The notes under the pieces were generated by a model. That model had not been told where the DNA came from, did not search any database, and saw only the letters and a program-made list of their open reading frames with translations. The position numbers and the translations under genes were made by a program. From NCBI GenBank assembly GCA_964451355.1, contig CAYVIE010000034.1, positions 1 to 22,868 of the forward strand: a DNA stretch of 22,868 nucleotides. The letters run 5' to 3'. Position 1 is the stretch's first letter; the number at the start of each line of letters is the position of its first letter. Below are positions 2,533 through 20,519 of this stretch, piece by piece. This DNA comes from an uncultured Desulfobacteraceae bacterium (GTDB lineage: Bacteria > Desulfobacterota > Desulfobacteria > Desulfobacterales > Desulfosalsimonadaceae).

Positions 2533-3078
2533 TTGATATATATTTTTGATTCATCAGATAAAAGATTACCCTCCATTAACTCAGGGTGTAGAAAAGTGGT
2601 TTTTTACAGACTCAGGCCTTTGGCCGCTTTGTTTATTATTATCTGCCTTGTTCTGCTTCAAGGCTGCTCGGGTATAAGCATTAAACAACAAGGGGAACCG
2701 TTGCCCGGATCCGCGCCCGAAGCATGGATCGCCGTGTACAGGGGGCCCCTTGACCATCTCAAGGCGTTGCGTGCCGGCCAATGCCCTATGTACCCGTCTT
2801 GCTCGGGTTACGCCAGAGAGGCTATATCAAGATACGGCCCCCTTTGGGGCTGGTTTATAACATGCGACAGGCTTATCAGGTGCGGCGGGGATACACTTGA
2901 TTTCGCCCCCAAAGTTCCAGTTAACGGAAAGTGGAAGTATTATGATCCCCTGAGCGCGAATGCTTTCTGGTTTGATGGCCAGGATGCATTCGCTGCGGGC
3001 GGCAACAGTACTGAAACTGATGCTCCGGAGGTACAATGGCTATTGAAGAAACAACATACAGGCCCAAACACCCGGTAA
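2533..3078 (+). CDS. YidD-domain (membrane protein insertion efficiency factor-like) protein with N-terminal signal/anchor and C-terminal extension
   Basis: CPMYPSCSGYAREAISRYGPLWGWFITCDRLIRCGGD matches my recollection of the YidD signature (C-x-F/Y-x-P-S/T-C-S-x-Y...R-C). A hydrophobic segment ends in LLQGCSG, a possible lipobox. The start is uncertain; an alternative GTG lies at 2596. The 3' end overlaps icmF by 43 nt. Confidence 0.6.
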   Translation: MIYIFDSSDKRLPSINSGCRKVVFYRLRPLAALFIIICLVLLQGCSGISIKQQGEPLPGSAPEAWIAVYRGPLDHLKALRAGQCPMYPSCSGYAREAISRYGPLWGWFITCDRLIRCGGDTLDFAPKVPVNGKWKYYDPLSANAFWFDGQDAFAAGGNSTETDAPEVQWLLKKQHTGPNTR

Positions 3079-19964: not shown

Positions 19965-20035
19965 AAAAAAACCCCGGGTCCCCGGGGCCTTAAAAAAAGA
20001 AACCCCGGGAGACCTTTTTCTGTCCACCCGGGGTT
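19965..20035 (-). terminator. Tandem attenuator hairpins (T1 and T2) in the leader of the DAHPS-PDT gene
   Basis: On the minus-strand RNA, T1 is AACCCCGGG-N17-CCCGGGGUU followed by UCUUUUUUU. T2 is (GG)CCCCGG-GGAC-CCGGGG(UU) followed by UUUUUUU. The CCCGGGG/CCCCGGG segments are mutually complementary and allow alternative pairings. Confidence 0.65.
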
Positions 20036-20061
20036 ATTCTTTGTCAGAAAATTTGCGGGAA

Positions 20062-20142
20062 CTACGCCACCGGATGGACGCCCCTAAAAAAGAAGCGCCC
20101 AAAAAACCAGAAAAAACCGGTCCGGTGATCAATTATATTCAT
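20062..20142 (-). CDS. Phe-rich leader peptide (26 aa) MNIIDHRTGFFWFFGRFFFRGVHPVA
   Basis: I translated it by hand on the minus strand: ATG at 20142-20140 and TAG at 20064-20062. It has 7 Phe and 1 Trp in 26 codons, clustered at codons 10-19. An AAGGA lies 7 nt upstream. It sits 148 nt upstream of the Phe-pathway gene and is followed by the terminator hairpins. Confidence 0.65.
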   Translation of the reverse strand: MNIIDHRTGFFWFFGRFFFRGVHPVA

Positions 20143-20188
20143 TCGCCATTCCTTTGGTAATAAATATCTCAGCAATAAGCAGCAAGAT

Positions 20189-20214: not shown

Positions 20215-20519
20215 ATATCGATTCTTCAAATACTTTATTAAGCCAGATATTGCTTATTTCCAGATTTATTTGTTTACATAAGACTAGGCCTTTGTCAAGT
20301 CGGATTCTAAAAAAATCATATTGTCTGGCGGCAACCGCCCTTATCAGGCGGCTAAATCATCTGCGATCCCGCCGCCTGTCAAGGTATCAACCGGCTTAGT
20401 GCGGAAGCAAGCATTTTGCTCTACTTGCATTATGAATTCTTTTGCGTTAGCAATGATATATTCCTGCTGAAATGATTGGGGAAACAGGTCTAAAAAAATT
20501 CTTTCAGGGGGTTTTCCGC

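Follow-up and report, generated by a model that had tools for sequence, protein, structure and literature searches.

The question raised by a contig from an uncultured Desulfobacteraceae bacterium (CAYVIE010000034.1 of assembly GCA_964451355.1; the whole stretch analysed, 22,868 nucleotides (nt) long, is called the window below) is what controls a minus-strand gene that encodes a fusion of 3-deoxy-D-arabino-heptulosonate 7-phosphate (DAHP) synthase and prephenate dehydratase (PDT). A reading of the letters of this DNA (the original prediction) had proposed that the gene is preceded by a phenylalanine (Phe)-codon leader-peptide attenuator, in which five RNA segments pair in alternative ways. 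We find that the region upstream of the gene very probably carries a ribosome-mediated transcription attenuator that senses Phe-tRNA(Phe) and controls the fusion gene, most likely by stopping transcription early when phenylalanine is plentiful. The attenuator would be built as a chain of six segments (A, B/1, 2, 3, 4 and 5) similar to that of the his operon, with a middle hairpin that usually doubles as a terminator. On comparative grounds, the element is real and strongly conserved, not a chance feature.

A Phe-rich leader open reading frame of conserved length precedes the fusion gene

The leader open reading frame (ORF) is the sole mini-ORF with at least six Phe codons among nine in the 22.9 kb window, both strands considered. 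Translation yields seven Phe and one Trp in codons 10–19, and an AAGGA motif resembling a Shine-Dalgarno (SD) sequence precedes the start codon; all of the coordinates and sequences originally given for this ORF check out (Table 1). The downstream gene is also what it had been taken to be, since its protein has DAHP_synth_1 (1.7e-85), PDT (2e-62) and ACT (6.7e-10) domains, with no chorismate mutase domain among its Pfam hits. The product thus joins the first enzyme of the common aromatic pathway to a Phe-branch enzyme and an ACT domain, and the cluster of Phe codons in the putative leader is for the amino acid made by the pathway of the gene that follows.

Homologous mini-ORFs with the ending GRFFFxFRSVHPVV and a stop codon lie upstream of the fusion gene at 57 loci. 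The RFFF core is present in almost all family members, with S, C or W variants in a few, and Phe accounts for 21% of the eight codons that precede the core, compared to ~3% of other N-terminal codons. The length of the ORF is held although its first ~12 residues are not conserved: an in-frame ATG is found exactly 27 codons from the stop at 40 loci, while no position in the other two frames is used more than four times. Among 54 distinct leaders, 35 have a 27-codon ORF and 47 have an ORF of 25–28 codons. Moreover, 31 of 53 family leaders (58%) have an SD-like tetramer between −16 and −4, compared to 10% of control positions. The stop codon always falls a few nt beyond segment 1, which in the window ends 6 nt before the stop, and segment 2 begins a median of 17 nt after the stop across the family, such that a ribosome at the stop codon would leave segment 2 uncovered. 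The leader thus has the start codon, putative ribosome-binding site and apparently translatable ORF that characterise leader-peptide attenuators.

The element defines a leader family in the Desulfobacterota

Homologues of the fusion protein number in the thousands; those nearest to it are 70–76% identical and are labelled Desulfosalsimonadaceae, Desulfobacteraceae, Desulfobacterales or Thermodesulfobacteriota. A genome scan based on whole-protein alignment and generic DAHP synthase patterns gave at least 80 loci, with four close relatives among the matches listed (L001–L004, from Desulfobacteraceae, Desulfobacterales and Syntrophobacteraceae). A metagenome scan in which the alignment was restricted to a clade-specific domain junction gave 80 further loci. 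We built a covariance model (R1) from 51 members, excluding the window. R1 matched the window once, over its full model length, at 20100-19962 on the minus strand (86 bits, E = 5e-17). It found the element in 58 of the 61 clade loci with at least 300 nt of upstream sequence (Desulfobacterales and Syntrophobacteraceae), and also matched loci outside its training set (L004, L159 and L161–L164). Two of these, L161 and L162, are loci from Desulfosalsimonadaceae metagenome-assembled genomes (MAGs), and L163 is the closest relative, with which the window has a divergent acyltransferase gene in common. There was no R1 match in the other 76 genome-scan loci listed, a set of DAHP synthase or fusion loci in which other phyla predominate. 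In the family, the element always lies directly upstream of the same fusion gene and on the same strand. With a significant R1 match directly upstream of its DAHP synthase-PDT fusion gene, the window is placed by this comparison in a new Desulfobacterota Phe-leader family. The search among orthologues suggested with the original prediction thus returned both the Phe-rich mini-ORFs and covarying stems, and the proposed choice between 1:2 plus 3:4 pairing and the two terminators is supported by conservation at 58 of 61 loci together with the covariation described below.

Two kinds of loci depart from the common arrangement. At L081, L112 and L133, the fusion gene has no leader element and the upstream coding region reaches the start of the gene, which may be co-transcribed with the gene that precedes it. 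At seven other loci (L001, L129, L116, L110, L146, L096 and L136), the gene starts 300–470 nt beyond the leader stop codon. The extra DNA, between the second terminator and the gene, consists of palindromic or tandem repeat units, such as an inverted pair of GACGGCTTCGCAAAAAGTCCGATT (L129), tandem units of CCCCCTTTGAGAAAGGGGGG (L116) and TTTCGTG repeats (L110 and L146); these units look like small mobile or repeat elements that were inserted downstream of the attenuator.

Compensatory changes maintain five mutually exclusive helices

The five segments originally proposed are present in the window at the positions given for them, and the second terminator (T2, 4:5) was also called by a terminator scan at 19991-19968. 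The structure model was incomplete, however, since it missed a hairpin, A:B (20100-20076), that encloses Phe codons 17–19, with the FFF codons lying in the 3′ end of segment A and in the loop. Inclusion of this hairpin adds a sixth segment to the chain and makes termination the predicted default when no ribosome is present.

Helix statistics were obtained from an alignment of 52 sequences, which are related to one another. All five helices (A:B, 1:2, 2:3, 3:4 and 4:5) are at least 95% paired and each has compensatory changes. In the termination set (A:B, 2:3 and 4:5), 96.1% of positions are paired and 11 pairs have changed on both sides; none of 500 shuffles was as good, and pairing fell to 32–56% if the partners were slid by one to three columns. 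In the antitermination set (1:2 and 3:4), 96.7% are paired and five pairs have changed on both sides, with sliding giving 23–68%. RNAalifold, with no structure supplied, predicted A:B, the first terminator (T1, 2:3) and T2. These sequence elements and their conservation, the covariation of the five helices, and the conserved positions of the ORF start and stop are direct observations.

The individual helices differ in how they have changed. Helix A:B is 95% paired, and its pair 33/53 (C-G in 44 sequences, U-A in 7) has changed in at least two independent events. The change in segment A from CGC to CGU, which is synonymous (Arg), is matched in segment B by a change from AGC to AAC, which replaces Ser with Asn; thus, RNA pairing outranks the identity of the peptide. 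Helix 1:2 is 98.5% paired, with pair 60/109 present as C-G (24), U-G (17) or U-A (11), and helix T1 is 95.7% paired, with pair 109/132 present as G-C (41) or A-U (11). Columns 60, 109 and 132, in segments 1, 2 and 3, change jointly in two clades. T2 is 98% paired with four covarying pairs, and in L004 the four terminator arms have all undergone concordant C-to-U and G-to-A changes. An antiterminator that shares a strand with a terminator, and that excludes it, is therefore indicated by covariation of both of the competing pairings.

Helix 3:4, which is 95% paired, bears on whether the second terminator is linked to the first. Its pair 133/171 is C-G in 27 sequences, U-A in 18, U-G in five and mismatched in two. 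In 23 sequences, segment 3 has U at column 133, although the column that faces it in T1, 108, never departs from G; the 18 sequences in which U at column 133 is accompanied by A at column 171 belong to several separate clades. On a protein-based tree, column 133 changes eight times and column 171 six times. We consider the behavior of these two columns the best evidence for selection on 3:4 pairing.

The position of the ribosome selects between the helices in constrained folds

None of 200 dinucleotide shuffles folds as well as the leader region of the window (z = −3.1), whose helices have predicted energies of −14.5 (A:B), −20.0 (1:2), −21.8 (T1), −17.8 (3:4) and −14.3 (T2) kcal/mol. The minimum-free-energy (MFE) fold of the full-length leader was set aside as misleading because the four terminator arms are near-repeats: segment 2 nests with segment 5 around 3:4, and the U-runs pair with A-rich spacers. 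Instead, we folded truncated transcripts with ribosome masks that extended 9 nt beyond the A-site codon. With no ribosome, A:B formed, followed by T1. When the A site was placed at F14, F17 or F18, helix 1:2 was the minimum-energy fold after segment 2 had emerged, and with the A site at F17 or F18, 1:2 together with 3:4 was the minimum-energy fold after segment 4 had emerged. When the mask was placed at the stop codon, segment 1 was covered and T1 formed. The folding with ribosome-occupancy constraints that had been suggested at the outset therefore gave the two outcomes that were expected. In these models, the geometry is that of an attenuator, in which the antiterminator strand is accessible when the ribosome stalls at the regulatory codons and hidden when it has reached the stop codon, and two intrinsic terminators, T1 and T2, are predicted to lie between the leader ORF and the structural gene.

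We infer the ribosome stalling, the folding kinetics and the response to phenylalanine from these folds, and propose the following course of events. In the termination state, the leader would form three hairpins, A:B, 2:3 (T1, with its U-tract) and 4:5 (T2, with U7); RNA polymerase would halt at T1, and the molecules that escaped T1 would halt at T2. If no ribosome were on the leader, A:B would sequester part of segment 1, making termination the default. If Phe-tRNA were plentiful, the ribosome would run to the stop codon and cover segment 1, again allowing termination. If Phe-tRNA were scarce, the ribosome would stall at FFF or at the Phe codons just upstream, covering A and exposing segment 1, which would pair with segment 2 upon its transcription and thereby block T1. 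Segment 3, thus freed, would pair with segment 4 and block T2, such that polymerase would read into the gene.

Several observations weigh against this interpretation or parts of it. At the moment when segment 3 has emerged, T1 has a small thermodynamic advantage over 1:2 (−21.8 versus −20.0 kcal/mol), and thus read-through depends on the kinetic assumption that 1:2 forms first, as it does in classical attenuators. The loop of A:B in the window is 6 nt (Ser-Phe codons) shorter than the family consensus, as it is in L004 and L131, and for this reason segment 1 would already be partly covered by a ribosome positioned with F19 in its A site. Segments 2 and 4 are alike, as are segments 3 and 5, and some complementarity between 3 and 4 is expected anyway. 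The excess of in-frame Phe codons upstream of the core is modest (87, compared to 54 and 62 in the other frames) and lies in a U-rich stretch. Each covarying pair rests on two to about five independent events in related sequences, and the relatives are mostly MAGs. Finally, the promoter in the window is uncertain, and the 5′ untranslated region may exceed that of the relatives by ~90 nt.

One leader peptide may govern two successive terminators

We considered that a single leader peptide might govern both intrinsic terminators through a relay of the five mutually exclusive helices, and we lean towards this arrangement, with less assurance than we attach to attenuation itself. If the relay is real, the repressed state gains the combined tightness of two terminators from one sensor. 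It would also fit the distribution of the U-tracts. The T1 U-tract (at least five U in 8 nt) is present at 40 of the 52 loci and is weak or lost at the other 12, whereas the U-run after T2 is kept at every locus, the few low counts coming from sequences trimmed at the end of the alignment. At the 12 loci that lack the T1 U-tract, the signal must reach T2 through 3:4 pairing, and the one way left for 2:3 to act is to hold segment 3 back or let it go. The middle hairpin thus appears to shift across lineages between a terminator and a pure anti-antiterminator.

The competing possibility that survives best is that the leader peptide controls T1 only, with T2 as an unregulated back-up or a remnant of duplication, and with 3:4 pairing a product of sequence similarity. 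The near-repeat arms of the two terminators (CCCCGGG and CCCGGGG) would cross-pair automatically, and they do pair freely, as segment 2 pairs even with segment 5 in the full-length MFE fold of the window. We nonetheless regard this possibility as improbable. An unregulated T2, with 9–11 GC-rich pairs and seven to eight U at every locus, would block expression permanently; moreover, column 133 follows column 171 rather than its always-G partner in T1, the 12 loci without the T1 U-tract retain T2, and the changes in L004 are concordant in all four arms. The two-terminator design may be a rule across the clade and not a single oddity, since the Trp-codon leaders at L100 and L137 (see below) have two terminators as well.

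It is a still more distant prospect that the mini-ORF encodes a functional peptide, small and hydrophobic, that has terminators of its own, or that the terminated leader serves as a trans-acting small RNA, so that the element is not (or not only) a cis attenuator. The conservation is unusually high for a leader, extending across proteins that are 58–76% identical, and trans-acting attenuator products, rnTrpL and peTrpL of Sinorhizobium, are documented (PMC7298713, PMC7968998). However, the peptide gives way to the RNA: replacements of Ser by Asn, of His by Arg, Tyr or Cys, and of Pro by Leu go with compensation in the RNA, and the two C-terminal residues are free to vary. On the same two grounds we rejected an arrest-peptide-type function of the C-terminus (FRSVHPVV) as the main constraint. 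Coding together with two alternative pairings for each segment would suffice to explain the conservation, and the invariable placement of the element directly upstream of one gene, on its strand, is also at odds with a role in trans, which would in any case add to cis attenuation and not exclude it.

Least credible of all is a translation-independent switch (a riboswitch, a T-box-like element or a protein-binding leader) with the Phe-rich ORF as a by-product of U-rich loops: although conservation is strongest at the nucleotide level and in the stems, with peptide residues changing to keep pairing, and although RNA-only control of the same fusion gene exists in two Firmicutes loci with T-box leaders, such a switch leaves unexplained an ATG set exactly 27 codons from the stop at 40 loci across unconserved sequence, the enrichment of SD-like motifs 5′ of that ATG and a stop codon placed right after segment 1, and we found neither an Rfam family match, T-box included, nor a conserved unpaired region resembling a ligand pocket outside the alternative stems.

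Comparison with known attenuators

With gathering thresholds, Rfam 15 gave no match in the window or in 13 related loci. In the window at E ≤ 10, the only hits to leader families were to His and Thr leaders, on the wrong strand and with 13–14 bits (His_leader, 14 bits, is weak). Other weak hits at that threshold, to Burkholderia small RNA models and PyrR, were discarded as generic matches to a hairpin and U-run that are driven by the terminators. Having no Rfam 15 match, the element belongs by homology to none of the curated leader families (His, Leu, Thr, Trp and others), nor is it a T-box. The T-box model had no match in the window, and the same search method found T-box leaders directly upstream of the same fusion gene in two Firmicutes MAGs, at 2701-2949 (+) of L079 and 2540-2827 (+) of L078 (128 and 94 bits). 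These leaders resemble the element in the window in the DAHP synthase-PDT fusion that follows them and in control by termination and antitermination; in contrast, a T-box senses uncharged tRNA directly and needs no leader peptide.

The closest functional parallel is pheL-pheA of E. coli, where a run of Phe codons likewise occurs in a short leader ORF, the antiterminator and terminator exclude each other, prephenate dehydratase is encoded downstream, and the stop codon is so placed that a terminating ribosome masks the antiterminator strand. The E. coli Phe leader peptide has 15 codons. That of the window family is longer (~27 codons), and no homology between the two leaders was detectable in sequence or structure, as no Rfam leader family matched the strand of the element at E ≤ 10. 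Moreover, the E. coli leader has four segments and one terminator and regulates chorismate mutase-PDT, whereas the window element has six segments and two terminators and precedes a DAHP synthase-PDT-ACT fusion. The ends of the ORFs also differ: UUC_CCC_UGA terminates the leaders of the enterobacterial Phe group, according to Gurvich et al. (2011; PMC3082878), and the family described here ends in VHPVV and a stop codon.

In architecture, the his attenuator is nearer. The his attenuator of Salmonella and E. coli has six segments, which pair as A:B, C:D and E:F or as B:C and D:E. The window element is like it in having three serial hairpins in termination and two staggered helices in read-through, with the regulatory codons in the first hairpin and one stalled ribosome that would act along the pairing chain. 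The likeness is architectural only, as the codons are for Phe and not His and the gene belongs to the aromatic pathway, and it has a limit, in that the middle hairpin of the window family (2:3) has its own U-tract at 40 of 52 loci and would thus be a terminator as well as the element that frees T2. The A:B hairpin also corresponds to helix 1:2 of the trp leader, with the regulatory codons in the first strand of the first hairpin. A series of two intrinsic terminators before a single operon is known, for example, from the tandem riboswitch-terminator units of Desulfovibrio, where two THI elements precede thiSGHFE (Rodionov et al. 2004; PMC545781). In that case a separate sensor serves each terminator, whereas we propose a single leader ORF for both.

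The original prediction held that such attenuators are not well documented in this lineage. That was somewhat overstated, since Gurvich et al. (2011; PMC3082878) devote one sentence to a possible pheL of Desulfobacterium autotrophicum, so that a Phe leader in this order is not entirely new. By description, the two come from the same bacterial order and rest on the same idea of a Phe-codon leader ORF upstream of a pheA-type gene; the paper offers no structure, family or comparative analysis of that pheL. This was the only mention found in the literature searched on leader peptides or attenuators of delta-proteobacteria and sulfate reducers and on tandem-terminator attenuators. Rodionov et al. 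(2004; PMC545781) do not mention amino-acid leader peptides in their reconstruction of delta-proteobacterial regulons, and Sun et al. (2013; PMC3766115) considered amino-acid attenuators to be probably of gamma-proteobacterial origin. The claim of novelty holds for the family itself, which is absent from Rfam 15; neither it, its structure nor the two-terminator design was described in the literature searched. Thus, the element appears to represent a known mechanism in a new and well-supported sequence family that is common among related sulfate reducers, with the two-terminator relay as a modest architectural variation.

The regulated gene and its promoter region

The fusion gene is apparently monocistronic, given that its downstream neighbour, a cytochrome b gene, is on the plus strand and converges with it. 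Its promoter is harder to assign. At most related loci, a cTTGACA motif lies ~55–62 nt upstream of the leader ATG and is followed 17 nt further on by a −10-like hexamer. The only perfect TTGACA of the window lies ~150 nt 5′ of the ATG, with a weak hexamer, TAAACA, after 16 nt, which suggests either an insertion of ~90 nt or a different promoter. A tandem direct repeat (two copies of ATAGAATACCAAA, 20216-20191, minus strand) lies between this TTGACA and the leader ATG. The sole minus-strand hit of a promoter scan (TTACCA-17-TATAAT, 20160-20132) was rejected, as it overlaps with the start codon of the leader and would place the transcription start within the ORF; 1.7 hits of this kind are expected from shuffles and we take it to be due to chance.

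Table 1. Positions of the leader ORF, the RNA segments and associated features in the window
Feature	Position	Strand	Sequence or content	Basis or remark
Candidate −35 box	20292..20297	minus	TTGACA	Inferred from relatives; uncertain
SD-like motif	20150..20154	minus	AAGGA, 7 nt 5′ of leader ATG	Read from sequence
Leader ORF	20142-20062	minus	26 codons and stop; MNIIDHRTGFFWFFGRFFFRGVHPVA then stop	Translation
Upstream regulatory codons 10–14	20101..20115	minus	F F W F F	Translation
Core regulatory codons 17–19	20086..20094	minus	UUC UUU UUU (FFF)	RFFF core conserved in family
Segment A, 5′ arm of leader hairpin	20100-20091	minus	GGGCGCUUCU	A:B pairing, RNAalifold
Segment B, 3′ arm of leader hairpin	20085-20076	minus	AGGGGCGUCC	Shares GUCC (4 nt) with segment 1
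Segment 1, antiterminator strand	20079-20070	minus	GUCCAUCCGG, inside codons 22–25	10 base pairs with segment 2
Segment 2	20035-20022	minus	AACCCCGGGUGGAC	Partner of segment 1 or segment 3
Segment 3	20013-20001	minus	GUCUCCCGGGGUU	With segment 2, predicted terminator T1
T1 U-tract	20000-19992	minus	UCUUUUUUU	Directly after segment 3
Segment 4	19989-19980	minus	GGCCCCGGGG	5′ arm of T2; alternative partner of segment 3
Segment 5	19979-19970	minus	ACCCGGGGUU; U7 run ending 19965	With segment 4, predicted terminator T2
DAHP synthase-PDT-ACT fusion gene	19914-18037	minus	625 amino acids	Pfam domains

Sibling leaders at related loci

Other aromatic leaders were noted at loci examined for the family. 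Trp-codon leader peptides are encoded divergently from the Phe leader at L100 (minus strand, ~1020-880; MRIYWWWWSAALEVCPPG then stop) and L137 (minus strand, ~1061-870; MEGVFTRARVFFWCWWWNAGVRGCAARIRAD then stop), and each is followed by two tandem terminators of hairpin and U-run. The Trp leader of L100 is followed by an ORF that begins MKENNHFPTREAFLELAETSNLIP and that we take to resemble anthranilate synthase. Weaker R1 matches were seen on the minus strand at L096 (734-872), L098 (982-1120) and L089 (1039-1177).

In L024, a Desulfobacterales MAG locus with a stand-alone DAHP synthase paralogue, a Trp-rich mini-ORF (MIGLQRIESLVWRWWWNAALGELATAI then stop) lies 234 to 150 nt before the start of the DAHP synthase gene (locus ~2767-2851), with a terminator formed by GGCCGTGGCC and GGTCACGGCCTTTTTT. 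This arrangement suggests isoenzyme-specific attenuators, with Phe leaders for the fusion and a Trp leader for the L024 paralogue. The L024 Trp leader is likewise 27 codons long, the same length as that held in the Phe-leader family; the fixed length might be linked to when ribosomes load in relation to pausing of the polymerase.

Phe/Tyr-rich mini-ORFs (such as MKKVFNYYFYNFYFFRPY and MKLNGFYFYGYYFFEPIS) were also seen upstream of stand-alone DAHP synthase genes in MAGs of Clostridia, KSB1 and Anaerolineae, at −153 to −96 (L043), −142 to −85 (L077), −466 to −400 (L075) and −549 to −465 (L068) relative to the DAHP synthase start. Rfam gave no match in the upstream regions of these four loci, and the mini-ORFs may encode aromatic leader peptides where T-boxes would be expected.

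Implications

The mechanism proposed here is a textbook one, and the result is solid and useful to specialists more than it is surprising. It would extend leader-peptide attenuation, which is best documented in gamma-proteobacteria, to a large family in the Desulfobacterota (at least 58 loci) that spans at least the Desulfobacterales and Syntrophobacteraceae, is absent from Rfam and is unannotated in these genomes. The sibling Trp leaders and the Firmicutes T-boxes suggest that lineages meet the same regulatory problem with different RNA devices. If the relay operates as proposed, the family would offer a natural case of one sensor driving two serial terminators, with a bearing on the evolution of tight attenuation and on the design of synthetic attenuators. 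For the organisms themselves, the leader would assign regulation to a 5′ region that is otherwise unannotated, and it indicates that the DAHP synthase-PDT fusion is their Phe-specific entry point into the aromatic pathway.

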